A DNA stretch of 64,000 nt from Anaerolineae bacterium (GTDB lineage: Bacteria > Chloroflexota > Anaerolineae > CG2-30-64-16), in the NCBI GenBank assembly GCA_034432655.1, contig DAOUBP010000038.1:660-64659 (forward strand), in the 5' to 3' direction. Each line of letters starts with the position of its first letter. Within the stretch, counting starts at the first letter, position 1. Shown piece after piece: positions 8,507-54,331 of the stretch. The position numbers and the translations under genes are program-made. Under the pieces are notes generated by a model, which saw nothing but the letters and a program-made list of their open reading frames with translations, was not told the DNA's origin and did no database searches.

Positions 8507-8537
8507 GCAACGCCTTTCTGATTCATGCGCAGGGTCA

Positions 8538-8607: not shown

Positions 8608-8643
8608 TCACTCCACAATCTACCAATTTACCAGGTTACCAAC

Positions 8644-9792
8644 CTACCCATGTATCCCGTTCGCCCAATTTCGCAACAGGTTATCCACGTCGTCCAAGGT
8701 CAGGGCGCGTTCGTCGGCCAAAGCCTTGATATGCTGCGTCAGCTTCTTGACCTTGGCGTCGGTCAGCTCCAGGCCGAGCTGGTCGGCGCGGGCTTTCACC
8801 GCGTTCCAGCCGGTGAGCCGGTGTGCGATGGAGATGTAGCGGGTCAGGCCGAAGTCGTGCGGGTCCAGCGCCTCGTAGGTCTCCGGTGCGTTGAGCAGCG
8901 CCTTGGCGTGGATGCCGGCCTTGTGGGTGAACGCGCTGTAGCCGGTGATCTGGTTGTTGAACGGGATGTCCACGTTCACCATCTCGGCCACCATCATCTC
9001 CAGCGCCCGCAGCCGCTCGAGCCGGTACTTGCGCCGGGTAGCCTCCCGGTCGTAGGTGTACATGCGGGCCACGAAGCCACCCAGCGACGGGATGCCGTTG
9101 CGCTCGCCGATGCCCAGCACCGAGGTGTCAATGTGCGTGGCGCCGGCCTCCAGCGCGGTGAACGCGTTGGCGATCGCGCAGCCGGAGTCGTTGTGGCCGT
9201 GGAACTCGATGTCGCAGCGGGTCAACCGGCGTAGCGTGCCCACCAGCCGGGCGACCTGGGTCGGCGTGGCGATCCCCACCGTGTCGGCGATGCCCAGCCG
9301 GTTCACCACCCCCAGCCTGTCCACCGCCAGGTAGACCCGCAACAGCTCGGCCTCGTCGCTGCGGAAGGAATCCTCGGTGCTGAAGCGCAGTTCGATGTCG
9401 GGCGCCTGCTGGCGGATCCACGGCAGCACGTCCGCGGCCAGATCAATGATCTCGTCAATGCTCTTGCCGTGGCTGAACTGGCGCAGCTTCGACGATGTGC
9501 CGATGACCACATCCACGCCGTCCACGCCGGCATCCAACGCGACCGCGGCGTCCTCCTTGTGGCAGCGGATGTGGGTCAGGACGCGGGCGCGCAGCCCCAA
9601 CCGGGCGACCGTGCGCAGGTCGGCCAGGCTGCCCGGCGACGCCTGCGGCGAGGTCAGTTCCAGGTATTCCACCCCGAACTCGTCCAGCGCCCGCGCGATG
9701 CGGATCTTCTGCTCGGTGGTGAACGCCGCGTTGATGAACTGTTCCCCTTCGCGAAGGGTAGAGTCTATGATGGCGTAGTTGTCCAGGGACAT
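8644..9792 (-). CDS. homocitrate synthase (LeuA/NifV-type; first step of the AAA lysine pathway)
   Basis: [42 protein letters not shown]; cluster context. Confidence 0.85.
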
Positions 9793-9799
9793 GGGTTGC

Positions 9800-9993
9800 T
9801 CCGTGATGCGTATTGCGTACTGCGTACTGCGTATTGCGTACTGCGTACTACGTATTGCGTATTGCGTACTGCGTGATGCATGATGCGTTAATTCGCTGAT
9901 TCGTCATTCGTCCTTCGTCCTTCGTCCTTCGTCCTTCGTCCTTCGTCATTCGTCCTTCGTCATTCGTCCTTCGTCCTTCGTCATTCGTCCTTC
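9800..9993. repeat. intergenic tandem arrays: CGTATTG/CGTACTG heptamers (9805-9885) then CGTCCTT/CGTCATT heptamers (9895-9993)
   Basis: direct reading, period 7, two families. Confidence 0.8.
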
Positions 9994-9994
9994 G

Positions 9995-11212
9995 TCAAGT
10001 AAGTGCAGTTTCGATCGCCTCTGCCACCCGCTCCAAATCCTCCTCCTCGATCACCAGCGGCGGGAGGAGGCGGAGGACGGTGGCGCCGGCGGGGAGGGCG
10101 AGGACGCCCAGGGCTTGCAGCCGCTGCAGGATGGGCGTGACTTTGACCTTCAGCTCGATGCCGATCAGCAGGCCCAGGCCACGCACCTCGCGGATGAGCG
10201 GCGAGTTGATGGCGCGCAGGCGGGCTTGCATGTGCTCGCCCAGCCGCGCGGCGCGTTGGGGGAGGATTTCGGTTGTAATCGTATCAATCGCCGCCAGCGC
10301 GGCCGCGCAGGCCAGCGGGTTGCCGCCGAAGGTGCTGCCGTGGGTCATGGGGCGAATGCCGGCGACACGCGGCCCGATCAGGCAGGCGCCCATCGGCAGG
10401 CCGCCAGCCATGGACTTGGCGACCGTCATCAGATCGGGAGCCAGGCCATAGTGCTCGCAGGCGAACAGCCGGCCCGTGCGACCGAAGCCGGTTTGGATCT
10501 CGTCCAGGATCAGCAGCGCGCCCCGCTCCCAGCAGACGCGCTGCGCCGTCTCCAGGAACCCGGGCGTCGCCGGGTGGACCCCGCCTTCGCCCTGCACGAC
10601 TTCCAGCAGCACCGCGGCCGTCTGGTCGGTCACCGCCCGTTCCAGCGCCGCACTGTCGTTGAACGGGATGTGGCTGAAGCCGGGCACCAGCGGCTCGAAG
10701 GGCTGGCGGTACTCGCGGTTCCACGTCGCCGACAGCGCGCCCAGAGTGCGACCGTGGAAGCCGCGCATGGCCGCCACGATCCCGCTGCGGCCGGTGCTCA
10801 GCCGGGCGAACTTGATGGCCGCCTCCACCGCCTCCGCACCGGAGTTGCACAGGAACGCGCGCTCCAGCCCGGCCGGCGCGATCGCGGTCAGGCGGGCCAG
10901 CAGCTCGGCGCGGCGGTCGTTGTAGAAGATCTCCGGGCAGGAGATGAGGGTGGCTGCCTGCCCGGCGATGGCCGCGACCACTGCCGGGTGCGCGTGGCCC
11001 AGGTTGGCCGCGCCCTGCCCGCCCACGCAGTCAATGTACTCCCGGCCCTCCGCGTCCCAGACCCGCGCGCCCTGTCCTCGCACGATCGCCAGCGGCCGCT
11101 TGGGGTAAACGCCGGAGGTGTGGCGCGATTCGAGGGAGAGGATGGTAGATTGGTAGGTTGGTAGATTGGTAGATTGGTAGGTTGGTGGGTGGATGGGACG
11201 AGTGTCAGTCAT
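9995..11212 (-). CDS. lysJ: class-III aminotransferase: [LysW]-aminoadipate semialdehyde / acetylornithine aminotransferase
   Basis: [45 protein letters not shown]; N-terminal ~30 aa ([22 protein letters not shown]) is encoded by the GGTAGRTT octamer array so the true start is uncertain. Confidence 0.8.
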
Positions 11213-11310
11213 GGGAGACCTCCCCCAATTCACCAAGTCCCAATCTACCAGTTCCTACTTTACCAACCCCCAATTTACCAACTTCCACTGTGCCAATCAC
11301 AGTCCCCTCC
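11140..11310. repeat. octamer array GGTAGATT/GGTAGGTT (11140-11195) and an inverted copy (11225-11310) spanning the lysZ stop / lysJ start junction
   Basis: direct reading; the two arrays are reverse complements and can pair. Confidence 0.65.
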
Positions 11311-12098
11311 CCGGCCAGCGCGGCGCGCACCGGGTGCGGGCGACGGGAGTCGGCCAGGATGACGGCGGGGACGCCGCCGGCCAGGGCCTCGCGGGCGGCC
11401 AGCAGCTTCTTCTTCATGCGGCCCTGGGCCAGGCCTTCGACCGCGTCCAGGTGAGAGGGCGCCACGTGGCGCACCAGGCTGCTTTCGTCCGGGAAGTTCG
11501 CCAGCAGGCCGGGCACGTTGCTGAGGATGATCAGCGCGCCGGCCCCTAGCGCGACCGCCAGCGCCGCCGCGGCCCGGTCGCCGTCCACGTTGAGCCGCTC
11601 GCCCTGCGCGCCCAACGCCAGCGGCGCGATGACCGGGGTGTAGCCGGCGCCCAGCATCAGCCGCAGCAGGTCGCCGTTGGCCGTTTCGAGCTGGCCGGTG
11701 TAGTCGTCACGGATGATCCGCTGCCGGCCGTTTTCCACCGCGCGCACCGCGTCCTTCCGCCGGGCCACCAGCAGCCGGCCGTCCACGCCCGACAGCCCGA
11801 CCGCGTTGCAGCCCAGCGCCTGGAGCCGGGCCACCAGCGCCTTGTTCACCTGCCCGGCCGCGGCCGCCACGTAGAGCTCCAGCATCTCCGGGTCGGTGTA
11901 GCGGCTGACGTGGCCCGAGGGCGAGGTGATGTGCCGCACCGGCACGCCCGCTCGCGCGGCCAGCGCATCGGCCGCGGCCGACGTGCCGTGCACCAGCACG
12001 ACCGGCCAACCCTCGGCCGCCAGCCCCGCGCTATCTGCCAGCACGGCGTCGGCATCCACCCCCGCCGCGCCGCCGAGTTTGATGATGATGGGATACAT
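11205..12098 (-). CDS. lysZ: [LysW]-aminoadipate kinase / acetylglutamate kinase family
   Basis: MYPIIIKLGG...VLVHGTSAA...; C-terminal tail [26 protein letters not shown] is repeat-encoded and overlaps lysJ start. Confidence 0.8.
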   Translation of the reverse strand: MYPIIIKLGGAAGVDADAVLADSAGLAAEGWPVVLVHGTSAAADALAARAGVPVRHITSPSGHVSRYTDPEMLELYVAAAAGQVNKALVARLQALGCNAVGLSGVDGRLLVARRKDAVRAVENGRQRIIRDDYTGQLETANGDLLRLMLGAGYTPVIAPLALGAQGERLNVDGDRAAAALAVALGAGALIILSNVPGLLANFPDESSLVRHVAPSHLDAVEGLAQGRMKKKLLAAREALAGGVPAVILADSRRPHPVRAALAGEGTVIGTVEVGKLGVGKVGTGRLGLGELGEVSHD

Positions 12099-12197
12099 GA
12101 GTGCTCCTGTTGCGTATTGCGTACTGCGTATTGCGTACTGCGTATCTTCTCCAGGCGGTACGCAGTACGAAGTACGAAGTACGAAGTACGGAGTATG
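12099..12197. repeat. inverted heptamer arrays (GCGTATTGCGTACTG... vs GTACGCAGTACGAAGTACG...) forming a long hairpin between lysY stop and lysZ start
   Basis: direct reading. Confidence 0.7.
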
Positions 12198-13253
12198 CTA
12201 TATCGGGTGCAGTCCTGTAGACTTCAACCCAGCCGTTTCGTCCAGCCCGCACATCAGGTTCATGCACTGCACCGCGCTGCCGGCCGCGCCTTTGCCCAGG
12301 TTATCAATGGCGGCCAGGGCCACCAGGCGGCCGGTGGCCGGCTCCAGCTCCCAGCCGACGTCGGCCAGGTTCGTGCCGGCCAGCAGCTTCGGCTCCGGGT
12401 GGCGGTAGATGCCGCCCCGCTCGTGGACGATGCGCACGAACGGCTCCTGGCCGTAGGCCGCGCGGTAGGCCCGCCAGAGGTCTTTGTCGCTCAGGCCGGG
12501 CTGCACCCACGCGTGCGCGGTCGCCAGCACCCCGCGCACCAGCTCGATCGAGGTCACCGACAGATGCACATCTCCGATCCCCAACACCTGCCGCACCTCG
12601 GCCTGGTGGCGGTGGCCGGTGGGCGCGAAGGAGCGCACCGCGCCGGCCCGCTCCGGATGATGCGACGCCGCGTTCGCGGCCGCGCCCCCCTCGGACGACC
12701 CTGCCTTCACGTCCACGATCACCGGTCGGTCGGCCCGCAGCAGCCCGGCCCGGACCAGCGGCAGCAGCGCCAGGACGGCGGCGGTCGCGTTGCAGCCGAC
12801 GCCGGAAGCATATTGCGTACTGCGTATTGCGTCGCGGTTGGCTTCGGGGAGGCCGTAGGTGAAGCGTGAGAGCCAGTCGGGGGCGGCGTGGGGTTCGCCG
12901 TAGGTGGCTTGATAGGTTTGCGGGTCGGAGAGGCGGAAGTCGGCGGAGAGGTCAATGATGCGGGGGGCGAGGCGGGCAAAGTGCTCGATGCGGCGCTGGG
13001 CCTGGCCGTGGGGCAGCGCCAGGAACAGCACGTCGCACGGGGCCAGCTCGCTGAGGGCCGTGAAGCGTATGGGCGGGATCCGGCCGCCCACGGGCCGCAG
13101 GTTGGGGTGCAGGCTGTGCACGTACTCGCCCGCGTGCGACTCGGAGGTCACCTGCGCCAGCTCGACGGCCGGGTGGCCCAACAGCAGCCGGATCAGCTCG
13201 CCCCCGCCGTAGCCGGAGCCGCCGACGATGGAGACGCGGAGGGGGGCGGTCAT
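12198..13253 (-). CDS. lysY: N-acetyl-gamma-glutamyl-phosphate reductase family: [LysW]-aminoadipyl-phosphate reductase
   Basis: [32 protein letters not shown] (active-site Cys region), NLGKGAAG; in-frame RSTQYA insertion from heptamers at ~12805-12840. Confidence 0.85.
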
Positions 13254-14212
13254 GGGCGGGCCTCCGGGGTGGTATTGCGTATTGCGTATTGCGTACTGCT
13301 TGCCGTTGAATGAGCAGTTCTCTCATGGTCTACGCAGTATGCAGTACGCAGTACGTACTCTGCCACCCGCGCCGGGATATCCACCCCCGTCGTGTGAATG
13401 CTGTTGCGGAACTCCATGGTGTGGTTCACCTCGTTGACCAGGAAGCCGCGATCGGGGTCTTCCAGCACGTCAATCGCGAGGACGCCGCCGCCCACGGCTG
13501 CCGCGGCCCGGCGGCAGAGGTCGTCCAGCTCCGGCGTCACCGGGCAGTTGGAGGCCTGGCCCCCGCGCGCGGTGTTGGTGATCCAGTGCGTCGAGCCCCG
13601 GTAGATCGCCGCGATGGTCTCGTCGCCCACGACGAAGGCGCGGATGTCGCGGCCGGGCTTGCGGATGTATTCCTGGATGTAGAAGATGCTGTGCAGGTAG
13701 TTGCCCAGCACCTCCTTGTGTTCCAGGATCGCCTCGGCCGCGTCCCGGTCGTTGATGCGGGCCAGCAGTCGGCCCCACGAGCCGACCAGCGGCTTGAGCA
13801 CGACCGGGTAGCCCAGTTCTTCGATGGCTTGCAAGGCCGCTTCGGGGGTGAAGGCCACGCGCGTGCGAGGCTGCGGGATGCCGGCCTCGGCCAGCGCCGC
13901 GCTGGTCAGCAGCTTGTCCCAGCACGTGGCCGCGGTGCGATAGGTGTTGACCGTGGGGATCCCGGCCGCCTGGAGCAGCCGCAGCGCATAGATGCCGCGT
14001 GCCGCGCTGACGGAGCGCTCGAGGACGATGTCGGCGCGGATGTTGTAGGGCGAGATTCCATCTCGCCCCACCGGCAGCACCAGCTCATCATCGTTTACCA
14101 GCTGCACCGTCGCGCCGGTGGCTTCCAGCGCGGCCAGCAGCAGCTTCTCCTCCACGCGGATGCGGGAGACGATCATCGCGACGGTGATCTGGGAGTGACC
14201 GTTCTTGCTCAT
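13250..14212 (-). CDS. lysX: RimK-type ATP-grasp ligase: alpha-aminoadipate--LysW ligase
   Basis: ATP-grasp motifs ([27 protein letters not shown]); start MSKNGHS 4 nt overlapped with lysW stop; C-terminal ~30 aa ([27 protein letters not shown]) repeat-encoded. Confidence 0.8.
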
Positions 14213-14379
14213 TCGCCCCAATCCTCCGCCTCTTCCGGCGCCAGGTCGAGGACCAGTGGGTCCAGCGACACCACCTCCAGCTCCGCGCCGCACGCCGGGC
14301 ACGGCACGATCTCCCCCTGCAACGGGTCGCGCAGGGTCACAGGACCTTCACATTCTGGACAGAGTGCTTCGCGTGACAT
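14209..14379 (-). CDS. lysW: LysW amino-group carrier protein (zinc-ribbon, C-terminal EDWGE)
   Basis: [16 protein letters not shown]...[10 protein letters not shown]...EEAEDWGE; perfect RBS aggagg 8 nt upstream; ORF-track ORF (to 14517) extended upstream through repeats by a TTG start. Confidence 0.85.
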
Positions 14380-14394
14380 GAGTGCCTCCTGATG

Positions 14395-14510
14395 ATGTGG
14401 GTTCGTACTGCGTATTGCGTACTGCGTATTGCGTGATTCGCCATTCGTTGATTCGTTGATTCGCTGATTCGCTGATTCGCCATTCGCTGATTCGTTGATT
14501 CGCCATTTCG
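14395..14510. repeat. 5' UTR of lysW built from heptamers (CGTACTG/CGTATTG) and ~12 octamers TGATTCG(C/T)
   Basis: direct reading. Confidence 0.75.
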
Positions 14511-14511
14511 C

Positions 14512-14556
14512 CCCCAAACAAAAAGCCCCCTCCCGCCAGACTGGTCGGGAAGGGGC
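14512..14556 (-). terminator. intrinsic terminator 2 (11-bp GC stem, 10-nt loop, UUUUUGUUUGGGGG) immediately upstream of lysW
   Basis: minus strand: GCCCCUUCCCG-accagucugg-CGGGAGGGGGC-UUUUUGUUUG. Confidence 0.6.
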
Positions 14557-14580
14557 CTGCGATGGGCTTCAGGGTGCGCG

Positions 14581-14652
14581 CTAGCGGCCTATCCAGACAC
14601 AGTCTGGCAAGCTGGTGACCTGCTTCTTAGCGCGCTTGAAGTTGAGATTCAT
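14581..14652 (-). CDS. candidate leader peptide 2: MNLNFKRAKKQVTSLPDCVWIGR (3 AAG Lys codons in 5)
   Basis: ATG with GGTGA 4 nt upstream; stop 22 nt before terminator 2; not in ORF track (below length cutoff). Confidence 0.3.
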   Translation of the reverse strand: MNLNFKRAKKQVTSLPDCVWIGR

Positions 14653-14662
14653 GGTTTCACCG

Positions 14663-14704
14663 CAAACAAAAAGCCCTGCCTGGCATCTTGGGCCTGGCAG
14701 GGCT
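14663..14704 (-). terminator. intrinsic terminator 1 (AGCCCUGCCAGGC-ccaagau-GCCAGGCAGGGCU + UUUUUGUUUG)
   Basis: 12/13 paired stem followed by U-tract on minus strand. Confidence 0.6.
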
Positions 14705-14727
14705 GCTGTGCTGAGTTGCGTCGCTTC

Positions 14728-14811
14728 TTACCCCAAGCACAAACGACCGTCCCTGCAGGCCAGGGCGGGCTTCTTGGACTTGGAGCACTTGGAGAGCGAC
14801 ATAGAGTTCAT
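14728..14811 (-). CDS. candidate leader peptide 1: MNSMSLSKCSKSKKPALACRDGRLCLG (4 AAG Lys codons in 7)
   Basis: small ORF downstream of consensus promoter, stop ~25 nt before terminator 1. Confidence 0.3.
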   Translation of the reverse strand: MNSMSLSKCSKSKKPALACRDGRLCLG

Positions 14812-14841
14812 CAAGGTTGTCTTTGCCTCACGCTGGGCGGT

Positions 14842-14869
14842 AGTATAACTAAAGTGCGCGATCTGTCAA
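14842..14869 (-). promoter_or_regulatory. sigma-70-type promoter TTGACA-N16-TATACT driving the leader/terminator region and lys operon
   Basis: minus strand TTGACAgatcgcgcactttagtTATACT. Confidence 0.5.
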
Positions 14870-14907
14870 ATTTCAAGTGTGGCCAACAAGACGATCAAAA
14901 CATCAGG

Positions 14908-15003
14908 CGGGGGCGGATGGGAGTCGAACCCACCTTGGACGCTTCCTAGGCGCCCATCACCGGTTTTGAAGACCGGGGCCGCCACCGGACGACAACCACC
15001 CCC
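14908..15003 (-). tRNA. selC: tRNA-Sec (selenocysteine), anticodon UCA, 96 nt, 8/5 acceptor/T-stem architecture with long variable arm
   Basis: GGGGGTGG-TT-GTCGTCCGGTGGCGGC-C-CCGGT-CUUCAAA-ACCGG-[26-nt variable arm]-GTGGG-TTCGACT-CCCAT-CCGCCCCC-G; aligns block-for-block with E. coli selC (TCGTCTCCGGTG..., CTTCAAA, TTCGACTCC). Confidence 0.85.
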
Positions 15004-15010
15004 ACACATG

Positions 15011-15039
15011 ATGATACACGACTTCGGTCAGATGGTCAA
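15011..15039 (-). promoter_or_regulatory. promoter for tRNA-Sec: TTGACC-N17-TATCAT, TSS ~7 nt upstream of tRNA 5' end
   Basis: minus strand TTGACCatctgaccgaagtcgtgTATCATcatgtgtG(+1). Confidence 0.55.
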
Positions 15040-15069
15040 AATGGTTGAAGTCGGCGCGTGTTCGTGGTA

Positions 15070-15222
15070 GAATAAATAAAATACTGCGTACTACTTACTG
15101 CGTATTGAGTGCTTCATGCGATCGCTCGCGCAATGTTTGTACGGAGTATGCAGTACGGAGTATGCAGTACGGAGTATGTAGTACGGAGTATGCAATACGG
15201 AGTATGTAGTACGGAGTTCGCC
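15070..15222. repeat. tandem GTACGGAGTATGCA(G/A) 14-mer (2x7) repeats upstream of AmrS gene
   Basis: direct reading. Confidence 0.75.
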
Positions 15223-16245
15223 ATGTCCCACCCCGCCATTCTCTGGGAACGACTGGGGCCCGACGACCTGCGGGTCCGCTGCAATCTGTGCGCGCACCAT
15301 TGTGTGATCGCGCCGGGCAAATTGGGGGTCTGCTGTGTGCGGGAGAACGTGGACGGCGAGTTGGTGACGCTGGTCTACGGTCGGGCGATTTCGCAACATG
15401 TAGATCCCATCGAGAAGAAACCGCTGTTCCATTTCCAGCCGGGCAGCAAGTCATACTCCATCGCCACGGTCGGCTGTAACTTTCAGTGTGCCTTCTGTCA
15501 GAACTGGGAGATCTCGCAGATGCCGCGTGAGGAGGGCGCCGTCATGGGGCGCTTCGTTGCCCCGGCTGAGGTCGCGCGCGCGGCCCGGCAGGCCGGCTGC
15601 GCTTCGGTGGCCTACACCTACACGGAGCCGACTATCTACGCCGAGTACGCGCTGGACTGTGCGCGGGAGGCGCAGAAATTGGGGCTGCGTAACGTGTTCG
15701 TCAGCAACGGCTATATGACGCCGGCGTTACTTGAGTTGATGGCGGGCCTGATTGACGGCATCAATGTTGACCTGAAGGCCGGCCGGGGCGAGTTCTACCG
15801 CAAGATATCGGGCGCGGGGTTGAAGGCCGTGTTGGAGAACCTGGTGCGCATCCACAAGTTGGGCATCTGGCTGGAGGTGACGACCCTGGTGATCCCCGGC
15901 CTCAATGACTCAGATGAGGAGCTGCGTTGGGCCGCGCGTTATCTGTACGACAACCTGGGGCCTGATGTGCCGTGGCATATCAGCCGCTTTTACCCGCACT
16001 ACAAGATGAGCGATGTGCCGCCCACCCCTGCCAAGACGCTCGAGCGTGCCTGGCAGATCGGCCGGGACGTGGGCCTGCACTACGTCTATGTGGGCAACCT
16101 GCCCGGCCATCACGCCGAGAGCACCTTCTGCCCTGGCTGCGGCGGCCTGGTCATCGAGCGCAGCGGCTACTGGCTCGGCCGGCGCAACCTGCGGGACGGC
16201 AAGTGCACTGCGTGCGGGACGGTCATCGCCGGCGTGGAGATGTGA
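15223..16245 (+). CDS. AmmeMemoRadiSam-system radical SAM enzyme (PflA-like)
   Basis: CNLCAHHCVI...CxxxC..C; VGCNFQCAFCQNWEIS; C-terminal CPGCGG...CTACG; adjacent AMMECR1 gene. Confidence 0.8.
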   Translation: MSHPAILWERLGPDDLRVRCNLCAHHCVIAPGKLGVCCVRENVDGELVTLVYGRAISQHVDPIEKKPLFHFQPGSKSYSIATVGCNFQCAFCQNWEISQMPREEGAVMGRFVAPAEVARAARQAGCASVAYTYTEPTIYAEYALDCAREAQKLGLRNVFVSNGYMTPALLELMAGLIDGINVDLKAGRGEFYRKISGAGLKAVLENLVRIHKLGIWLEVTTLVIPGLNDSDEELRWAARYLYDNLGPDVPWHISRFYPHYKMSDVPPTPAKTLERAWQIGRDVGLHYVYVGNLPGHHAESTFCPGCGGLVIERSGYWLGRRNLRDGKCTACGTVIAGVEM

Positions 16246-45667: not shown

Positions 45668-46127
45668 GTGACTCTCCGCTTTCTCCTTGACACCAATGTC
45701 ATCTCCGAACCACTGCGCCCTGTCCCTAACCAGGCGGTGCTGGAACGCCTGCGTGAGCACCAGGCAGAGATCGCCATTGCAGCCGTTGTCTGGCATGAGT
45801 TATGGTATGGCTGCTATCGGCTGCCCGAATCGAACAAGCGCACCGTGATCGAGGCCTATCTCAAAGAGGTGGTCGCGCGTGCGATCCCGATCCTGTCGTA
45901 TGATCCGCGGGCAGCATTATGGCACACAGTGCGCAGCCTCCCCTAAGGGGATCGCGGCGGCGATCCACCTTCGGCCGGCCGCGACGGATGGCGTCATGTA
46001 TGGTATGATATTTACAGCAATACTTCGCAGAGGCGGCATGGCGGTTCGTGATGCTGATACCGAGTGGTTGCGCGTGCAGGCTTACCGGCGCATCGGCGCC
46101 AGCCGGGCGCGTTCTTCTACCGGCTAG
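45668..46127 (+). pseudogene. degraded PIN-domain (VapC-like) toxin gene: GTG start, frameshift after ~85 codons; no antitoxin ORF upstream
   Basis: LLDTNVISEP...AVVWHELWYG (PIN N-half) in frame 45668-45946; C-half-like residues (AAAIHLRPAATDG...) in a different frame 45879-46127. Confidence 0.5.
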
Positions 46128-46954
46128 AACTCCTTCTCGCTGATGAACGCGCCGTGCCAGGTGTGATACCACACCTGCCCGGTGTAGGCGTTGACGCTGA
46201 GCATGCCGGCCGGCTTACCGTTCTGCAGGAAGTCCATGGTGTAGTAGCCGGGAAACTGCATCTCGTCGTCGGCCAGGGTGGCGCCGGGGAGGTTGGCGTC
46301 GAGCCACCCCTGTCCCGCGGCCCGCGCCTGCGCCACGGTGATGGCCGTGGGGCCGGCCGGACGATTCCACCAGCCCATCATGCCGCCGAAGCCGGCCATA
46401 TGGCCGTACTTCGTGTTCCACATCATGTTGGGGCCGGGCTCGGGGATCACGGAGCCGGTGTAGCGGTTGACCAGCAGCTCGAAGGCGCCCATGCCCGTGC
46501 TCTGCTCCTTGACCATGGCGTAGAAGTTGTTCTCGAACTCCATCACCTCGGCCAGGGTCAGGTCGCCGTTGCCATAGCGCTTCAGGTATTCCTGCACGGC
46601 TGCCGCGGCCTGATCGAGGGTGATCGGCTGGCCGCTTGCCTGGCCCGGCGCGGCGCCGAGCATCGGGCAGCCGGCCGACCAGGGGTCGGTGATGGGGTTG
46701 CCGAATCCCATCATGCCGCCGGGGCCATAGCTGCCCATCATGCTGCCGGGGCCATAGTTGCCCATCATGCCAGGGCCATAGTTGCCCATCATGCCGGGGC
46801 CATAGTTGCCCATCATGCCGGGGCCATAGCCCTGGCGGCCCCAGCCGCCCCACGCGCCGCCCGGCCCTTGGGCGAAGGCAGTCGCCGCGAAGACAGCCAT
46901 CAGCAACAGGACGGCCAATCCCAGGCCGACCACGAGTCTGGTACGCTTGTTCAT
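46124..46954 (-). CDS. secreted Met/Gly-rich repeat protein (signal peptide; 6x YGPGMMGN; PepSY-like C-terminal half)
   Basis: MNKRTRLVVGLGLAVLLLMAVFAATAFA signal; Met-rich repeats suggest Cu(I) binding; RBS aggag. Confidence 0.6.
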   Translation of the reverse strand: MNKRTRLVVGLGLAVLLLMAVFAATAFAQGPGGAWGGWGRQGYGPGMMGNYGPGMMGNYGPGMMGNYGPGSMMGSYGPGGMMGFGNPITDPWSAGCPMLGAAPGQASGQPITLDQAAAAVQEYLKRYGNGDLTLAEVMEFENNFYAMVKEQSTGMGAFELLVNRYTGSVIPEPGPNMMWNTKYGHMAGFGGMMGWWNRPAGPTAITVAQARAAGQGWLDANLPGATLADDEMQFPGYYTMDFLQNGKPAGMLSVNAYTGQVWYHTWHGAFISEKEF

Positions 46955-47117
46955 CTTTGCTTCTCCTGCTGTGAGATGGAAGACGCGGGGGCGATCGCTG
47001 TCGCCCTCCACGCGCTTCAGGAGCCAGTATAGAGCGGTTCCGGGCTGTCGGTAAGCGCCGATTGTCGCATTGTCCCCGCGCCGTTTGGCCTATGCGGGGA
47101 GCAGGGGCAAGCAGGGG

Positions 47118-48836
47118 TTACGGCCGGTCGGCCTTATGCAGGGGCAGGCGCGCCGTGAGGGTCGTGCCCTGGCCGGGCGCGGAGGCGATGGTGAGCCGGC
47201 CGCCGTAGAGGAGGGCGCGTTCGCGCATCCCCATCAACCCGAAGTGGCCCTGCCGCGCCAGGTCGGCCGGCTGCTCCGGCGGGACGAAGCCGACGCCGTC
47301 GTCCCGCACGGTCAGGGTGAGGGCATCGGCCGCGAAGACGATCTTGATCCATGCGTTGGTCGCGCGGGCGTGCGCGGCCACGTTGTCCAGCGCCTGCTGG
47401 ACGATGCGGTAGGCAGCCAGTTCCAGGTCGGGGGCCAGTCGAACGACTTCCCCCTCGACGGCGAAATGGACGCGCAGGCCGTGGCGCTCCTCGACCTGCC
47501 GGGCCAGCATCTCCAGGCCGGGCACGAAGCCGAGGTCCTCCAGGTAGATCGGCCGCAGGTCGCCGATGATGCGACGCAGGCCGGCGATCTCCTCGTCAAT
47601 CAGGGCGTTCAGCTCTTGCAGCCGCGCGGCTGCGCGAGCGGGGTCATGCGCCAGGGCCTTCAACGCCATCTGGCCGCGCTGTTTGAGCGCGATGAGGCCC
47701 TGGATGGTCACGTCGTGCAGCTCGTGCGCCAGGCGATGGCGCTCGGCTTCCTGGCCCTGGGTGATGGCGCTCAGGTAATCGCGCATGCCGCTCTGGTACG
47801 AGCGGATGCGTTCGGCCATCTGGGCCAGGGTGACGCGCAGATCGTCTATCTCCTGCACGCCATCCACCGGTGCTTCGATGGCGTCGAAGTCGCCCCAGGC
47901 GACGCGCGCCGCGCGGCGCGCCAGCTCTTGCAGCGGCCGCACCACATTGAGCATCCCCAGCGAGACGGCCAGCAGCGCCACGACCGCGACGAAGAGCAGC
48001 ACCAGCGGCAACACCTCCACCTCGCTCATCCCCATCGAGACGATCCCGCGCACGTCCTCGGCCATGATCAGCGTCCAGCCGGGCGGCTCGATGCGGGCGT
48101 AGGAGGCCAGCAGCTCGCGGCCGTCGCGGTCGCGCAGGTAGCTCGAGCCGGAATCGGCCGCGGGCAGGTCGGCGAAGATGCCGATGTCCTGGATGAGGCC
48201 GGCCGGGTCGAAATGGCGGACGCGCCGGCCGGTCTGGTCGAGGATCACCAGCGCCGCGTGCAGCGCGCCATCGGCCGCCAGGTTGTCTTCGTTGAGGCTC
48301 AGCGTCTCCACAGGGAGGGCCGTGATCAGCGCGCGCTGGCCGGCCGCCGGCGCGGCGATCAACAGCCGCGGGGACGCCGGATCGGCCAGGTCGGTCTCAT
48401 ACTGCGGCTGGCCGAGCGCTGCGGCGCGCGCGGCCGCGATGCGCGCGGCATCGCCAGCGGCCCAGGGGGTCGCCGCGGGCGATGCGGCCAGGAGCGCGCC
48501 GGAGGCATCCAGCAGCGCCAGGCCGCCGGCGTCGAACGGTTCATCGGGCAGGGGGGAAGCGGGAGCGGCCGACAAGGGGGCGGCCAGCCGCGTCAGGGTG
48601 GCGATCTGTTGCGCGATCTCGCGGCCCAGGCGGTTGGCCTCGGCCGTCGTCCAGCTGCGGTCGCGCTCCTCGACCAGGCGGGTCATGGCCTGACGATGGC
48701 GCGCAATGCCGATCAGCGACAGCGCCACGAGCACGATGGCCAGCGGCAGGATCGTCCAGAGCAGCAGTTGGGCGCGCAGGCCGCGCAGGAGCCGGGCGCC
48801 GCGCGGCGGCCGTCGTTCGCTCGCCTCACGCGTCAT
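47118..48836 (-). CDS. NarX-type sensor histidine kinase (HisKA_3)
   Basis: ERHRLAHELHDVTIQGLIAL (H-box), 2 TM flanking periplasmic domain, HATPase C-term. Confidence 0.85.
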   Translation of the reverse strand: MTREASERRPPRGARLLRGLRAQLLLWTILPLAIVLVALSLIGIARHRQAMTRLVEERDRSWTTAEANRLGREIAQQIATLTRLAAPLSAAPASPLPDEPFDAGGLALLDASGALLAASPAATPWAAGDAARIAAARAAALGQPQYETDLADPASPRLLIAAPAAGQRALITALPVETLSLNEDNLAADGALHAALVILDQTGRRVRHFDPAGLIQDIGIFADLPAADSGSSYLRDRDGRELLASYARIEPPGWTLIMAEDVRGIVSMGMSEVEVLPLVLLFVAVVALLAVSLGMLNVVRPLQELARRAARVAWGDFDAIEAPVDGVQEIDDLRVTLAQMAERIRSYQSGMRDYLSAITQGQEAERHRLAHELHDVTIQGLIALKQRGQMALKALAHDPARAAARLQELNALIDEEIAGLRRIIGDLRPIYLEDLGFVPGLEMLARQVEERHGLRVHFAVEGEVVRLAPDLELAAYRIVQQALDNVAAHARATNAWIKIVFAADALTLTVRDDGVGFVPPEQPADLARQGHFGLMGMRERALLYGGRLTIASAPGQGTTLTARLPLHKADRP

Positions 48837-49500
48837 CGAGCACCAGCCAGCCCAGTTTGAGCGCCTTGGTCACCGCCTCGGTGCGACTGGCCACGGCAAG
48901 CTTGCCGTAGATGTTGGCCAGGTGGCCCTGCACCGTACGGTCGCTGAGGCCCAGCTCGGCCGCGATGGCTTTGTTCGTCAGGCCTTGCGCGGCCAGGCGC
49001 AACACAGCGAGCTCGCGCTCGGTCAACGGCTCCACCTGCCCGGCCGCGGCCGCCGGCTTGCCGGTGGTCATCTGGGCGATCACCTTTGCCGCGACGTCGG
49101 GGGCCAGCACCTTGCCGCCGGCCGCCACCGTCTTCACCGCGGCCACCAGGTCGTCGGGATCGGCGTTTTTCAGGATGTAGCCGTCGGCGCCGGCGCGCAG
49201 CAGGGCGAAGACGTAGGGGTCCTCGTCGTAGGCGGTGAGGATGAGCACGCGCACTTCGGGACAGGCGGCCTTGATCTGCCGCGTGGCCTCGATGCCGTTG
49301 ACGCGGGGCATCTGCACGTCGAGTAGGGCGACGGCCGGCCGCAGCTCGCCGACCAGGCGCACGGCCTCGGCGCCGTCGGCAGCCTCGGCCACCACCGTGA
49401 CCCCGCCGTCCTCTTCCAGGAACTCGCGGATGCCCTTGCGCACCACGGCATGGTCGTCGGCCAGCAAGACCCGAATCGGGTCAGATGAAGCAGTCGTCAT
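48826..49500 (-). CDS. NarL/LuxR-family response regulator
   Basis: IRVLLADDHAVVR, LDVQMP, LTERELAVLRLAAQGLTNKAIA; ORF-track N-extension (to 49800) lacks features. Confidence 0.85.
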   Translation of the reverse strand: MTTASSDPIRVLLADDHAVVRKGIREFLEEDGGVTVVAEAADGAEAVRLVGELRPAVALLDVQMPRVNGIEATRQIKAACPEVRVLILTAYDEDPYVFALLRAGADGYILKNADPDDLVAAVKTVAAGGKVLAPDVAAKVIAQMTTGKPAAAAGQVEPLTERELAVLRLAAQGLTNKAIAAELGLSDRTVQGHLANIYGKLAVASRTEAVTKALKLGWLVLDDA

Positions 49501-49571: not shown

Positions 49572-51371
49572 TTACTTGCCGAAGCGTACCCCCAGCAGGT
49601 TCGCCAATTCCTGTACCTCCTGGGAGCCGCTGATCAGAATGCCCGCGTTCGCGGCATAATCCAGCGCCGAGGCCTTGAAACCGCTGCTGGAGATCATCCA
49701 TAGGGTCGGCGCGCCGGTCAGTTTGAGATGTTCGGCCGCGGCGCGAGCTTTCTGGACGAAGGCGGCCAGATCGGCCCGATCTGCTGGCCGGTTGCGCCAT
49801 TTGACTTCCACCAGCCAGGGCGAAGGGCCTTCGGCCACCGCATCCAGCTCGATCTGGCCGTCCGGGCTTTGATAAGCGGCGACGCGCGTAAAGGCCGGCA
49901 GTGTCAGGGTTTCGGCCTCTTCTGCCGACCGGCCGAAGAGACGTCCCGGCACCTGACGACCGTCGAAAGCCGCCAGCAACTCGCGCACCTGGCTTTCCCT
50001 GGCCAGGCCCAATTCGCTGCTGAGGCGCTGATAGCGTTGGCTCATGTCGGCGACCAATCCCTCCAGGATCTCGCGGCGTGGGACAGTCAGCAGCTCGATG
50101 CCGGCATGGAAGTAAGCCAGCCAGATCTTGAGCACCGGATCGGGCAGGTCGTAGGCCCCGTCCGTCTGGAGCACCAGATCCACTTCGGCCAGACGGTTTA
50201 GCAGGGCGCGCGTGGCACCGGCCGGCCGGCGTAATCTTTGCGCAAGCTCGGTCAAAGTCAAGGGGTGTTCCGACTCGGCCAGGATCTGCAGGAGCAGGCG
50301 CAGGAGCGCCTGGCCGCGGGCATGGCCCATGGACTCCTCGATCACGTAACGACAGAGGTTGTAGATTCTGCCGGTAGTAGAGAGGGTCTCCAACACAAAG
50401 GCTTCCCGCACCAGTTGCGCATCCACCGTGCGACCGGAGAGCAGGATCAGCTCGCGCATGCGCTCGGCGACCGCATAGATGTAGAACGGATGGCCGCGCG
50501 TCCAGACATAAAGGGTATGGGCCGCGTCGGAGGGCAATGTCTCGCCGGCCAACGCCTTGCGCGCCAGCTCCTCGCTCTCGGCGCGGCCGAACGGGCCGAC
50601 GCGCTCGGTGCGAAAGTGGACGAAAAGGGGCGAACGCGCCTGGTGGAAGATCCCTTCCATGAGGCTGATCGCCGACCCGGCTGCCACGTAGGCCACTGCC
50701 GACTGAGTCTGCAATACCGAACGAAAGAGGTCCAGCACGTCGCCAACCTGCGGAAAGTTGGATAGCAGGCCGAGATCCTGAAACTCATCAATGCAAATCA
50801 GGAAGCGGACGCCCTGTTCGCGCGCCAACACCTCTGGAAAGCTAAACGCCAATTCCAACAGGCGTCGTTGCGGAATGGCTTGTTGGCGCAGGTCGCGGTC
50901 CAACTCCAGTACGATGTCCAGCACATGCGGATTGGCCAGTGCGCTCGCAGCTCGAAGGAGGGTTGGCAAGCGCGCATATTCATCCCAGCGGCCTTCGCCC
51001 TTCTCAAGAAACCAGTAGAGCACGGAGCCAATGTATTCCACGGCAAACGATTCTGGCGATAAGCCCAGGCGCTTGAGGTCCAGATAGACCGGCAGGACGC
51101 GCGGAACATCGGCTGCCGCGGGGCGCTGGAGCCAGCGCAAAATGAATTCCTTGAGGATGAGGGTCTTGCCGATACGACGCAATCCCAGGAGCGCCAGGTG
51201 TTTGCGACGGCCCTGCTGGAGCTCGATGCCACACATCTCAAGCAGCCCCAAGTGGTAGTCGCGGTCGGTGAATAACGCGCGTTCATCAACCGGATAAAGA
51301 TAATCTAGCACGACCGATGCTCCTGGCGCAAGGCGATTGCGCGGCGAGACTGAGAGGCACTGAAATCGCAA
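49572..51371 (-). CDS. ATP-binding protein, archaeal-type ATPase (PF01637-like) with C-terminal DUF234/nuclease-like domain
   Basis: LLGLRRIGKTLILKEF (Walker A), ICIDEFQDL (Walker B), C-term DAVAEGPSPWLVEVKW. Confidence 0.6.
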   Translation of the reverse strand: MRFQCLSVSPRNRLAPGASVVLDYLYPVDERALFTDRDYHLGLLEMCGIELQQGRRKHLALLGLRRIGKTLILKEFILRWLQRPAAADVPRVLPVYLDLKRLGLSPESFAVEYIGSVLYWFLEKGEGRWDEYARLPTLLRAASALANPHVLDIVLELDRDLRQQAIPQRRLLELAFSFPEVLAREQGVRFLICIDEFQDLGLLSNFPQVGDVLDLFRSVLQTQSAVAYVAAGSAISLMEGIFHQARSPLFVHFRTERVGPFGRAESEELARKALAGETLPSDAAHTLYVWTRGHPFYIYAVAERMRELILLSGRTVDAQLVREAFVLETLSTTGRIYNLCRYVIEESMGHARGQALLRLLLQILAESEHPLTLTELAQRLRRPAGATRALLNRLAEVDLVLQTDGAYDLPDPVLKIWLAYFHAGIELLTVPRREILEGLVADMSQRYQRLSSELGLARESQVRELLAAFDGRQVPGRLFGRSAEEAETLTLPAFTRVAAYQSPDGQIELDAVAEGPSPWLVEVKWRNRPADRADLAAFVQKARAAAEHLKLTGAPTLWMISSSGFKASALDYAANAGILISGSQEVQELANLLGVRFGK

Positions 51372-51986: not shown

Positions 51987-52421
51987 ATGTCGCAACGATC
52001 TATTCTCGCTCTTGCCCTCGCCCTGCTCGGCGCCCTGCTGTTGGCCGCTTGCGCCGGCCGCGGGCAAGCCGACAGCACGGTGAAGCTGGCCCCGGTTTCA
52101 ACATTGCCCGGAGAAATCCAGCGCGCGCCGGCCGCGGTCCGCACGGCCTATCAGTTCGCTCTGGCCAACCCGGACGCACTGGCGAACGTGCCGTGCTACT
52201 GCGGCTGCGGCGCGATCGGGCACCGGAGCAACCTGGCCTGCTACGTCAAGGAGTTCGGCCCCGACGGGCGGCCGGTCTTCGACGACCACGCGCTGGGGTG
52301 CAGCATCTGCGTGGACATCGCCACCGATGTCATGAAGATGAGCGGCGAGGGCAAGGCGCCGGCCGAGATCCGCCAGCGGATCGTGGACGCCTACAGCAAG
52401 TTCGGGCCGGGGAACCAGTGA
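51987..52421 (+). CDS. PCYCGC-motif lipoprotein
   Basis: lipobox LLLAAC; NVPCYCGCGAIGH...LGCSICVDI. Confidence 0.75.
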   Translation: MSQRSILALALALLGALLLAACAGRGQADSTVKLAPVSTLPGEIQRAPAAVRTAYQFALANPDALANVPCYCGCGAIGHRSNLACYVKEFGPDGRPVFDDHALGCSICVDIATDVMKMSGEGKAPAEIRQRIVDAYSKFGPGNQ

Positions 52422-52442: not shown

Positions 52443-52611
52443 TGACAAGGTGTATCTGCAGACGCCCGTGCTGTTGATCGGCCTGGTCGCGGCGATGGCC
52501 CTGGCGCTGCGCACAGCGCGGCAGCACGATCAGCCGCCGCGCGCGGCCCTGCCCGTCGCGTTCTTCTGTGTCGCGGCGACGTTGGGGCTGCTGGGCCTGT
52601 ATCTGGGATAA
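52443..52611 (+). CDS. possible small two-TM membrane protein (GTG start)
   Basis: hydrophobic 54-codon ORF between PCYCGC and cupredoxin genes, preceded by GACAAGGT x2.5 repeat. Confidence 0.2.
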
Positions 52612-52663: not shown

Positions 52664-53692
52664 ATGAACCGCAACGCTGAGCATTTCGCTCTCGCACTTC
52701 TGCTGCTGGCGCTCGCGGCCCTGCCGATCGGCATCTTCGGCTATCGGGCATGGCGGCTGGGGCCGGCCGCGGCCGGCGTCCGGGTGATCGAGATCACGGC
52801 GCGCGCGCCGGAACAGGGCGGCTTCCATCCCGACCGGCTGACCTTTCGGGCCGGCGAGACGGTGCGGCTGCGCATCACTTCGCCCGATGTCGTGCATGGA
52901 CTGGTCATCCCCGGCCTGGGGATCGAGATCAACGAAATCTACCCCGGCAAGGTCGTCGAGGTGGATGTGACGCCGACCCGGCCGGGCCGCTACGCCTTCG
53001 CCTGCACGCGCTGGTGCGGCGCGGATCACTGGCGCATGCGCGGGGTGATCGAGGTGGTGGACCCGACCCCCCGGCCCCCTTCCCTTTCAGGGGAGGACTC
53101 GGGGGAGAGGTCGTCGGAGGCGCCACTCTACCAACAGCTCGGCCTCGACCTGGACGCCATGCGCCACGCGGCGGCCACGACGCCCGCGGCCCGGCCCTCG
53201 GCAGCGGCCGCCGCGACATGGTCCGGCCGCCTCCCGGCCGATCTGGCCGATCCGCGCGCGCGGCGCGCCATCGCCCCGGCCGACGCGTTTCGCCGCCTGC
53301 GGGCCGATCCGGCCAACGCCGACCTGAGCGACGCCGACTTGTGGGATCTGGTTGCCTGGGCGTGGTTCAAGGATGTGGACGAGAAGGCGCTGACGCGTGC
53401 GGCCGCGCTCTACGCCCGCGATTGCGCGGCGTGTCATGGCGAGGGCGGCGCCGGGGACGGCCCGGCCGGGGCGAATCTGCCGGGCATGGCCAAGATGGAT
53501 CCCATGATGCCCCGCGGCCCGGCCGACTTCACCGACGCCAGGGCCATGCTGACAGCCAGCGACGCGCTGCTCCAGGGCAAGCTCTTGCGCGGGGGCGTGG
53601 GCACCGGCATGCCGGAGTTCGGCTCGCTCTACACCGACGCGGAGCTATGGGCGATGGTCGCCTATCTCAGGGCCTTCCTGTTTGGGAAGTAG
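52664..53692 (+). CDS. cupredoxin (CuA, cytochrome oxidase subunit II-like) fused to C-terminal cytochrome c
   Basis: TM; HGLVIPGLGIEINEIYPGK; CuA-like CTRWCGADHWRM; heme site CAACHGEGG. Confidence 0.7.
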   Translation: MNRNAEHFALALLLLALAALPIGIFGYRAWRLGPAAAGVRVIEITARAPEQGGFHPDRLTFRAGETVRLRITSPDVVHGLVIPGLGIEINEIYPGKVVEVDVTPTRPGRYAFACTRWCGADHWRMRGVIEVVDPTPRPPSLSGEDSGERSSEAPLYQQLGLDLDAMRHAAATTPAARPSAAAAATWSGRLPADLADPRARRAIAPADAFRRLRADPANADLSDADLWDLVAWAWFKDVDEKALTRAAALYARDCAACHGEGGAGDGPAGANLPGMAKMDPMMPRGPADFTDARAMLTASDALLQGKLLRGGVGTGMPEFGSLYTDAELWAMVAYLRAFLFGK

Positions 53693-53856
53693 ATCCGTCG
53701 CCACCCCCCTCGCCCCCGCAAGGCGAGGGCGAAGGGGGAGAAAAAAAGTCGGTTGGGGTTTGGGGCGGCAGCTTCGCCGCCGCCCCAAACCCCAATTTGA
53801 GGGGCTTCCCCCTCCCCAAGCCGCACAGCTCTCATCATTTCTGTAAGGAGGAACCG

Positions 53857-54033
53857 ATGCCTTCAAGGGCCAATCAACTGCCAAAAGACGCCAAAGCCGG
53901 CGCTGCGCCCACGACGACGCGTCGGCTGCTGCCGATCGTTGCCCTCGTCGCGGCGGTGCTGCTCATCGCCGCGGGGATCGTGTTGGCGCGCTGTCAACAT
54001 GCCGCGGCTGGCCGTGGACCGCACGCGGATTGA
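53857..54033 (+). CDS. small membrane-anchor ORF (58 aa) in frame 0, probably the N-terminal TM anchor of the DUF1573 gene separated by a -1 frame shift
   Basis: excellent RBS taaggagg; TM LLPIVALVAAVLLIAAGIVLA; overlaps start of next ORF. Confidence 0.45.
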   Translation: MPSRANQLPKDAKAGAAPTTTRRLLPIVALVAAVLLIAAGIVLARCQHAAAGRGPHAD

Positions 54034-54331
54034 TTTCGGCAAGGTGCCGCTCGACGTGCCGGTGCGGGCCACCTTCCGGCTGAGCAATATCGGCGATCGG
54101 CCGCTCAAGCTCCTCAACCAGCCGGTCGTCGAAGTCAAGCAGGGCTGCTGACCGCCCCGGCCGGTCGTCGGTGCGACGACCTTGCAGCCCGGACAGAGCA
54201 CGCAGCTCGCGATGGAATTCATGATGCACAAAGGCATGGAAGGCCCGCACGACTTTCGGGTGCGGCTCAAGACGAACGATCCCGTGACGCCGGAGGTGGA
54301 GCTGGTGGTGCTCTCGGATTGGGGGAAGTGA
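53999..54331 (+). CDS. DUF1573-domain protein with in-frame UGA (54149-54151) - candidate selenoprotein, or recent pseudogene
   Basis: RIDFGKVPLDVPVRATFRLSNIGDRPLKLL...KQGC-UGA-...PGQSTQL...FRVRLKTNDPVTPEVELVV matches DUF1573 on both sides of UGA; 7-bp stem-loop 54163-54181 exactly 11 nt 3' of UGA. Confidence 0.4.

Follow-up and report, generated by a model that had tools for sequence, protein, structure and literature searches.

Selenoproteins built on the DUF1573 domain have been known for some time. The family OS_HP2 was found in 2007 in the deltaproteobacterial symbionts of Olavius (PMC1976440) and was listed in the Global Ocean Sampling (GOS) metagenome study as pfam07610 with the motif UxC (PMC2398784), its recognition being based purely on a conserved UGA codon, a hairpin resembling a selenocysteine insertion sequence (SECIS) and homologues with cysteine (PMC1976440, PMC2398784). 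The catalogues of 2022 and 2026 give it as "DUF1573 domain-containing protein, UGC" (PMC9312934; PMC13188914, Table 1, 119 families). The 2026 catalogue treats forms that differ in the position of selenocysteine (Sec, U) as separate subfamilies, and no form of DUF1573 with adjacent cysteine (Cys) and Sec, here called the C-U form, is in its list (PMC13188914). The gene described here, at positions 53857–54331 on the forward strand of a 64,000-nucleotide stretch of an Anaerolineae bacterium genome (contig DAOUBP010000038.1, assembly GCA_034432655.1; this whole stretch is called the window), is a distant relative of that family. A sequence-only reading of the window had proposed that a DUF1573 gene with an in-frame UGA and a hairpin behind it represents a new selenoprotein family. 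Since OS_HP2 is already catalogued, the DUF1573 fold itself is not new to selenoproteins, and this part of the proposal had to be given up. The novelty lies in the subfamily: it is found in Chloroflexota and unannotated, its C-U dyad occupies an adjacent position, and the OS_HP2 model fails to capture it. Searches of the literature on DUF1573, PCYCGC and Anaerolineae selenoproteins gave no functional data and no earlier account of the C-U form. Judged from the comparison of related loci, the family very likely represents a genuine Sec-UGA/SECIS gene. As an explanation of the whole, we consider it likely that the locus belongs to an unannotated selenoprotein family of Chloroflexota for which a Cu(I) or redox role can be proposed, and that the window carries a damaged copy of it.

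In the window, an ATG at 53999 opens a frame (frame 2) that reads MPRLAVDRTRIDFGKVPLDV...NQPVVEVKQGC and encodes the N-terminal half of a DUF1573-like immunoglobulin-like (Ig-like) domain (53999–54148, forward strand; 98% identical to homologue P0003). The TGA at 54149–54151 comes next, and the open reading frame (ORF) 53999–54151 ending behind ...VEVKQGC is thus as the sequence-only reading had described it. The same frame remains open for 59 more codons (PPRPVVGATTLQPGQSTQLAMEFMMHKGMEGPHDFRVRLKTNDPVTPEVELVVLSDWGK) and covers the C-terminal half of the domain (54152–54331, forward strand; PPRPVVGATTLQPGQ...MHKGMEGPHDF...TNDP...LSDWGK), up to the true stop, TGA 54329–54331. That these codons belong to the second half of the domain was also borne out: when the first UGA is read as Cys, the Pfam model DUF1573 (PF07610) matches residues 5–97, across the stop, with 33.7 bits against a cutoff of 26.1, and the related HYDIN/VesB Ig-like model is matched as well. 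The read-through protein passes the gathering threshold of DUF1573 with a motif that differs from the canonical C-x-C (CGC or CTC) after strand 4/5; in its place stands C-C/U-P-P, with Pro aligned to the second Cys.

A search with the read-through protein against 5.8 billion proteins returned about 60 homologues from Anaerolineae and Chloroflexota metagenomes, nearly all of them 111–116 amino acids (aa) long and all of them ending with ...VEVK(Q/A)GC where the window has TGA. The only full-length Cys form in this search was P0001, with the motif GCCPP; no full-length family member annotated with Sec was present, and the entries retrieved for Sec forms are all truncated hypothetical proteins of about 112 aa. 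At the DNA level, 16 species-representative genomes, 71 metagenome contigs and 4 contigs of a near-identical strain were compared. Of 88 loci from Anaerolineae and other Chloroflexota, 87 have TGA at the homologous codon; the loci encode proteins with 45–98% identity and fall into 63 distinct sequences over the 57 nt that surround the TGA. The sole exception is locus L080 (around position 947; protein P0002), with TGG (Trp) at the site; the first G of the hairpin loop has changed to C and a frameshift occurs some 20 codons downstream, because of which we judge it to be a decayed copy or a poor contig. Beyond the TGA, an in-frame stop within 50 codons is found in 0 of 68 distinct sequences, as compared to 66 and 48 of the 68 in the other two frames, and the nucleotide diversity at codon positions 1, 2 and 3 amounts to 0.26, 0.21 and 0.455, respectively. 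The absence of stops together with the high third-position diversity therefore indicates purifying selection on the translated frame.

Further Cys forms were gathered by an exhaustive HMMER search with P0001, which is 64% identical to the window protein, and by a profile search. Many of them are single-domain proteins of 145–185 aa, and one is a RefSeq protein of the cultured organism Aggregatilinea lenta. In the 74 aligned Cys-form homologues, G109-C110-C111-P112 is invariant and C111 stands in the column of the UGA (74/74). The Sec codon thus takes the place of the second of two vicinal cysteines. Invariant or nearly so in the same set are M136, H137, M140 and H144, which are part of the sequence F-x-M-H-x-G-M-x-G-P-H, and the motifs T-N-D-P and S-x-W. 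The UGA at 54149–54151, which matches the second Cys of the family motif G-C-C-P-P, can thus be assigned from the homologues as a predicted Sec codon, and its conservation in other genomes, a comparison that the sequence-only reading had suggested, is in agreement with this. The same holds for the proposal that a UGA directly after a Cys is a redox arrangement, since what emerges is a Cys-Sec dyad of the redox or metal type. A neighbour-joining tree of about 106 aa does not group the Sec forms as monophyletic and requires at least 5 state changes, but the tree is not robust enough to tell a single origin followed by reversions from several separate origins.

The comparative data on the hairpin point in the same direction. 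In the window it reads GGTCGTC-ggtgc-GACGACC (54163–54181, forward strand), starts 11 nt after the UGA and consists of a 7-bp stem with the loop GGUGC (54170–54174). The conserved part is a 6-bp core stem (54164–54169 with 54175–54180; alignment columns 25–30 with 36–41), of which all six pairs are formed in 63 of the 63 distinct sequences. Changes on both sides have occurred at five of the six core pairs (GC to AU, UA to CG, CG to UA, GC to AU and CG to AU), giving stem variants such as GTCGTC/GACGAC, ACCATC/GATGGT and GTTGTA/TACAAC. The covariation score is 0.298 as compared to 0.149 in shuffles; none of 500 shuffles reached 0.298, and slid registers were all much worse. In four loci (L015, L016, L083 and L086) the paired changes are purely synonymous, GTC to GTA being accompanied by TCG/GCG to TCT/GCT, and in sequences that encode (A/T)I..MV instead of VV..TT the two arms differ in concert, all six pairs being kept. 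The loop has the consensus GGUKC, in which the G at position 2 and the U at position 3 are invariant. As to the spacing of the E. coli fdhF type that had been proposed, 11 nt is correct for the window; across the sequences the conserved geometry is 12 nt from the UGA to the 6-bp stem, the seventh pair that produces the 11-nt spacing being present in only about half of them. A lower helix around the UGA, suggested by RNAalifold (columns 3–8 with 14–18), was rejected, as it consists of nearly invariant Gly, Cys and Pro codons with little covariation.

Genes for Cys forms served as a control. Five of six of them form only 2–4 of the six homologous pairs. The hairpin persists in the gene of the closest Cys form, P0001 (locus L092, 3395–3907, codon TGC), where its stem is compensated (GTTGTC/GACAAC); it is apparently a relic of a recent change from Sec to Cys. 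The hairpin is thus invariantly paired in Sec forms, covaries and is lost in distant Cys forms, which supports the earlier proposal that it behaves as a SECIS element. The pattern that the sequence-only reading had named as evidence to the contrary, close relatives with a sense codon and no conservation of the hairpin, is contradicted by the TGA in 87 of 88 loci and by the core stem paired in 63 of 63 sequences.

A gene for tRNA-Sec with the anticodon UCA is located at 14906–15003 on the reverse strand of the window. It was found by ARAGORN as well as by the Rfam model RF01852 (71.9 bits against a gathering score of 47), which confirms its earlier recognition; no tRNA-Sec gene was present in the 16 related loci searched. 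The gene stands, in the region 6467–16245, without adjoining sel genes. On one side it is bordered by a lysine biosynthesis cluster of the alpha-aminoadipate type (an aconitase-family protein, a homocitrate synthase-like protein, an aminotransferase, an amino-acid kinase, a semialdehyde dehydrogenase and a LysX-like ATP-grasp protein), and on the other side by an AmmeMemoRadiSam radical SAM gene (15109–16245; TIGR04337, 372 bits).

The relationship to OS_HP2 can be described in terms of its NCBIfam model, NF041425, which is the best NCBIfam match of the Chloroflexota C-U clade. The proteins of the window and of locus L001 score 23.6–25.2 bits, as against a cutoff of 100, and 65 of the 74 Cys-form relatives match the model, all far below the cutoff (best E = 9.6e-13). 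When a profile of the 74 members was aligned with hhalign to a canonical DUF1573 protein from locus L091 (motif S-C-T-C-T), the first Cys of CxC coincided with the retained Cys of the C-U clade, the Sec or second-Cys position with "x", and the Pro with the second Cys, with a 5-residue insertion upstream. Mapping of fragments onto NF041425 places CxC at profile positions 40 and 42, the CC motif of the family adding no score. By this one CxC protein and the fragment mapping, the predicted Sec is at profile position 41, adjacent to the Sec site of OS_HP2 (position 40) and not at it. Searches of the PDB by sequence, with a single sequence and with the profile, gave nothing informative.

Regarding the N-terminus, the copy in the window is not what it seemed. 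The sequence-only reading had taken the ATG at 53857, which is preceded by a strong Shine-Dalgarno sequence AGGAGG (53846–53851, forward strand, 5 nt 5' of the ATG, as read from the sequence), as the start of the gene. Translation from this ATG is in a different frame from the domain: frame 1 (53857–54033, forward strand) spells MPSRANQLPKDAK...RRLLPIVALVAAVLLIAAGIVLAR and encodes an N-terminus with a signal-anchor transmembrane helix (MPSRANQLPKDAKAGAAPTTTRRLLPIVALVAAVLLIAAGIVLAR) before it reaches a stop at 54031–54033, out of frame with the domain. As far as ...IVLAR, its product matches the N-termini of the homologues of about 112 aa, and a helix is present at residues 23–46 in the AlphaFold2 (AF2) model of homologue P0001. 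The alternative start TTG 53939, in frame 2, was considered and rejected; because the frame-2 ORF upstream of ATG 53999 has no hydrophobic segment, a membrane anchor cannot be restored from there.

The frames have been separated by a deletion. Compared to locus L017 (97–98% identical), 44 nt between two GCGCGC direct repeats are missing in the window, the junction being the GCGCGC at 53986–53991 (forward strand), so that the frame is shifted between anchor and domain. From ATG 53857 to TGA 54151 the window has 295 nt, which is not a multiple of 3, as compared to 339 nt in L017. Over about 3.4 kb no other coding indel separates the window from L017, and anchor and domain are in one frame at all other loci, including all 16 genome loci. 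A second lesion affects the operon. About 1.9 kb is gone between 52421 and 52664, comprising the gene of a small CuA cupredoxin and most of a NapH-like Fer4_5 polyferredoxin gene, of which a remnant encoding the C-terminal 43 aa or so is left (52453–52581, forward strand; found by tblastn of L002 proteins against the window). Both genes are intact in L002 and present in related Sec-form and Cys-form loci. The sequence-only reading overlooked both the frameshift and the loss from the operon. We conclude that the gene in the window has probably been inactivated recently, or else that the assembly is wrong at the two lesions.

Two further peculiarities of this region were observed. A 599-aa ATPase-like gene with a helix-turn-helix (HTH) domain (49572–51371, reverse strand) lies between the response regulator gene and the PCYCGC gene described below, and it looks like an insertion or rearrangement in the window strain since it is missing from that position in related loci. 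The spacer 53693–53856, between the cupredoxin-cytochrome c gene and the selenoprotein gene, contains two long G+C-rich hairpins (53704–53738 and 53753–53795, with arms of 16 and 20 nt). This two-hairpin element occurs in the window and in L017, whereas L001 and L002 lack it and have only some 20 nt between the two genes. An inserted repeat or a terminator-like element is a possible explanation.

In related loci the DUF1573-like gene is part of a conserved five-gene module, together with genes for a PCYCGC lipoprotein, a small cupredoxin, a polyferredoxin and a cupredoxin-cytochrome c protein. The copper/redox neighbourhood recognised by the sequence-only reading is thereby confirmed, with the PCYCGC protein, the COX2-like cupredoxin-cytochrome c and a Met-rich protein all present in the window. 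The PCYCGC-motif lipoprotein is encoded at 51987–52421 (forward strand; Pfam PF13798, 93.4 bits; NCBIfam NF041379 OS_HP4_CYCXC, 70 bits with a cutoff of 90), and its gene adjoins in nearly all Sec-form and Cys-form loci. It is akin to another catalogued selenoprotein family, OS_HP4/CYCXC, although all copies seen here have Cys (PCYCGC or PCFCGC). Thus, relatives of OS_HP2 and OS_HP4, two orphan families that were first found together in the Olavius symbionts, are operon partners here. The membrane-anchored cupredoxin with a CuA motif (CTRWCGADHWRM), fused to a cytochrome c with CAACH, is encoded at 52664–53692 (forward strand; Pfam COX2, Cupredoxin_1 and Cytochrom_C, and motif scan) and is syntenic in 15 of 16 genome loci; an ARAGORN call of a tRNA-Gly inside this coding sequence in L002 (5289–5378) is most likely a false positive. 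The small COX2-like cupredoxin of the module has the CuA ligand motif C-x3-C-G-x2-H-x2-M, and the polyferredoxin is a NapH-like Fer4_5 membrane protein. Cys forms are accompanied by the same five genes in permuted order, except at locus L096, where only the PCYCGC-DUF1573 pair is found, without cupredoxins. Other genes nearby encode, in the window, a secreted Met-rich protein with GPGMMGNY repeats (46124–47011, reverse strand; no Pfam or NCBIfam match), which in L002 also occurs near the module and is followed by a multicopper oxidase gene, and, in L093, a DUF305 protein. A two-component system (47118–49500, reverse strand), consisting of a HisKA_3-type sensor kinase (47118–48836) and a NarL/LuxR-type response regulator (48826–49500), is syntenic with the module.

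A number of observations weigh against the selenoprotein reading of the locus. The hairpin is itself translated, with a loop that specifies an invariant Gly and with stem changes of which some alter amino acids (VV..TT to AI..MV), so part of its conservation is at the protein level. The window, which is rich in G+C, holds 68 perfect 7-bp hairpins, 5 of the 854 TGAs on the forward strand have a 7-bp hairpin 9–13 nt downstream, and the z-score of the hairpin in single-sequence folding is −0.38. The hairpin alone is thus not beyond what chance would produce in such a window, and its significance comes entirely from the comparison with other genomes. A check of the hairpin region with Rfam covariance models, which the sequence-only reading had recommended, gave no support: no SECIS family was found in the whole window at gathering thresholds or in 54080–54260 at E <= 10, where there were only chance matches, an outcome that is expected as bacterial SECIS elements are diverse. 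Furthermore, selA, selB and selD were not among the 20 window ORFs scanned with Pfam, and the copy in the window is frameshifted. One could suppose from the independent, inactivating 44-nt deletion, the partly deleted operon and the statistically ordinary hairpin that the TGA really terminates translation, having arisen by nonsense mutation or through an error in sequencing, that the gene is a pseudogene and that the hairpin is a coincidence of G+C-rich DNA. The comparative data have already refuted this explanation, to which we assign next to no probability: the same TGA is found in loci whose proteins are as little as 45% identical, the frame behind it is under purifying selection, the hairpin covaries, 74 homologues have Cys at the position, and 63 distinct sequences around the TGA cannot be one misassembly repeated. 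A second possibility is that the hairpin is kept only for the sake of the peptide V-V-G-S/A-T-T and that the UGA is read in another way, by near-cognate read-through or in a code where UGA means Trp or Gly. The Gly encoded by the loop GGU, the many stem positions that are first or second codon positions, the TGG of L080 and the lack of an Rfam SECIS match would fit with this. It is nevertheless very improbable in view of the purely synonymous paired changes, the retention of six pairs when the peptide changes to (A/T)-I..M-V, and the failure of Cys forms with related peptides to keep the pairing; moreover, the gene's own terminator is TGA, a tRNA-Sec gene is present and L080 looks decayed or of low quality.

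With the UGA read as a Sec codon, two questions remain to be weighed, the state of the window copy and the function of the family. The 44-nt deletion and the 1.9-kb gap could both be assembly artefacts, in which case the organism would possess an intact selenoprotein gene and operon. The deletion falls between short direct repeats (GCGCGC), where the sequence is very rich in G+C and of low complexity, it is the sole coding indel over some 3.4 kb, the remaining gene is 98% identical at the protein level to the intact P0003 and has no other lesion, and intact versions are present in four independent assemblies of a near-identical population. On the other hand, short direct repeats are also classic sites of genuine deletions, and two independent lesions in one operon are what the decay of a dispensable module would produce, for which reasons we regard artefacts as a rather unlikely explanation for both. 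As to function, a conserved Met/His loop is typical of extracytoplasmic Cu(I) sites, and an adjacent Cys-Sec pair can form a selenenylsulfide or chelate soft metals. The C-C/U loop (residues 109–114) and the MHxGMxGPH loop (135–141) should be at the same end of the predicted sandwich, since both come after "up" strands. Context and conserved residues thus suggest that the C-U family probably has a copper or redox function, a view that we hold tentatively and with somewhat less than even confidence. More specifically, the G-C-U-P-P protein might be a Sec-dependent extracytoplasmic Cu(I) chaperone or reductant that matures the CuA centres of both cupredoxins in cooperation with the PCYCGC lipoprotein, but in this precise form the proposal is doubtful. 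Fold searches show no similarity to known copper chaperones, and the case for copper comes only from neighbourhood and motif. Instead of handling copper, the Cys-Sec protein could be a general extracytoplasmic thiol/selenol oxidoreductase that forms a vicinal selenenylsulfide, as the GCUG motif of thioredoxin reductase does, or a binder or detoxifier of a different soft metal or of a chalcogen, such as Hg, Ag or polysulfide. This agrees with the lack of fold likeness to copper chaperones, with L096, where the PCYCGC protein is the only partner, and with the catalogued bacterial selenoproteins with a CU dyad, which include Hg-related and other metal-related proteins (SaoL, HgcA, MbdU and CopZ-like form 2; PMC13188914, Table 1). 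It is, however, less easily reconciled with the cupredoxins with CuA motifs beside the gene in nearly all loci with enough flanking sequence, with the Met-rich protein, multicopper oxidase and DUF305 genes nearby and with the Met/His loop, and we consider it a possible though unlikely alternative.

On the preferred explanation, a Sec-containing protein with a copper or redox role, the intact protein would have about 172 aa and begin with a signal-anchor helix, followed by a single extracytoplasmic domain, an Ig-like beta-sandwich of the DUF1573/ASH-PapD type in which one loop carries the motif Gly-Cys-Sec-Pro-Pro. The UGA at 54149–54151 would be decoded as Sec by Sec-tRNA(Sec), the gene of which is in the window. 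SelB, bound to the hairpin 11–12 nt downstream (6–7 bp stem, GGUKC loop), would deliver the Sec-tRNA, both SelB binding and selenium incorporation being inferred. The Cys-Sec dyad and the loop F-x-M-H-x-G-M-x-G-P-H may then provide a soft-metal site, most likely for Cu(I), or a redox-active selenenylsulfide site. Such a site could serve the module formed with the PCYCGC lipoprotein, the two CuA-type cupredoxins and the NapH/CcoG-like polyferredoxin, for example by copper delivery or by reduction for CuA assembly.

Whatever the function, current annotation entirely misses a well-supported selenoprotein subfamily, of which the C-U form is not captured by any NCBIfam model. Since the entries are truncated and such a model is lacking, Anaerolineae genomes are mis-annotated at this gene, including that of the wastewater filament Ca. 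Amarolinea. The locus also indicates that Sec has been recruited at two adjacent positions in one loop of the DUF1573 fold, as U-x-C in OS_HP2 and as C-U here. Furthermore, it offers the first genomic handle on two orphan families, as there is tight linkage of the DUF1573-like proteins with the PCYCGC proteins and of both with CuA cupredoxins, cytochrome c and polyferredoxin, and this linkage points to an extracytoplasmic copper or redox role that can be tested. The natural Cys forms in the culturable Aggregatilinea lenta make the function accessible to experiment. If the reading as a Cu(I) chaperone proves to be true, this would be the first selenoprotein in the biogenesis of copper centres, and OS_HP2 (DUF1573) and OS_HP4 (PCYCGC/CYCXC) would be functional partners in general.

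It is useful to compare the C-U protein with better known systems. Sco proteins have a thioredoxin-like fold with CxxxC plus His, and PCuAC (DUF461) has its own cupredoxin-like fold with H(M)x10Mx21HxM. Like Sco1/SenC and PCuAC, the C-U protein is small and predicted to be membrane-anchored or periplasmic, has Cys and His/Met as potential ligands and is encoded beside CuA proteins. The role proposed for these proteins, Cu(I) delivery or reduction of the CuA cysteines, is the closest functional analogy, as judged from the gene neighbourhood only. Unlike them, the C-U protein has no sequence or fold relationship to either, neither of them appeared in the fold searches, and it does not have the defining features of a CuA metallochaperone. 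With mammalian thioredoxin reductase (C-terminal Gly-Cys-Sec-Gly) and the bacterial CU selenoproteins it shares the adjacent Cys-Sec after Gly, whereas the fold is unrelated, the dyad is internal in an extracytoplasmic Ig-like domain and followed by Pro-Pro, and a flavin or ferredoxin partner domain is absent.

The minimal SECIS of E. coli fdhF consists of an upper stem-loop that is bound by SelB and is located 11 nt from the UGA. Similarly, the hairpin in the window is directly downstream of the UGA within the coding sequence, at 11–12 nt, and has G residues in the apical loop. The sequence and loop of this putative SECIS are different, however, with a GGUKC pentaloop and no bulged U identified. 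Among catalogued selenoproteins the C-U protein comes closest to OS_HP2, with which it shares the Ig-like fold superfamily, a Sec in the same loop after the same beta-strand, and the manner of its recognition, by a conserved UGA, a SECIS-like hairpin and Cys homologues. Where OS_HP2 has U-x-C, the C-U clade has G-C-U-P-P, in which Pro takes the place of the second Cys. Five inserted residues precede this motif, a further conserved loop (MHxGMxGPH) is present, the hosts are Chloroflexota and the gene stands in an operon with CuA and PCYCGC proteins.

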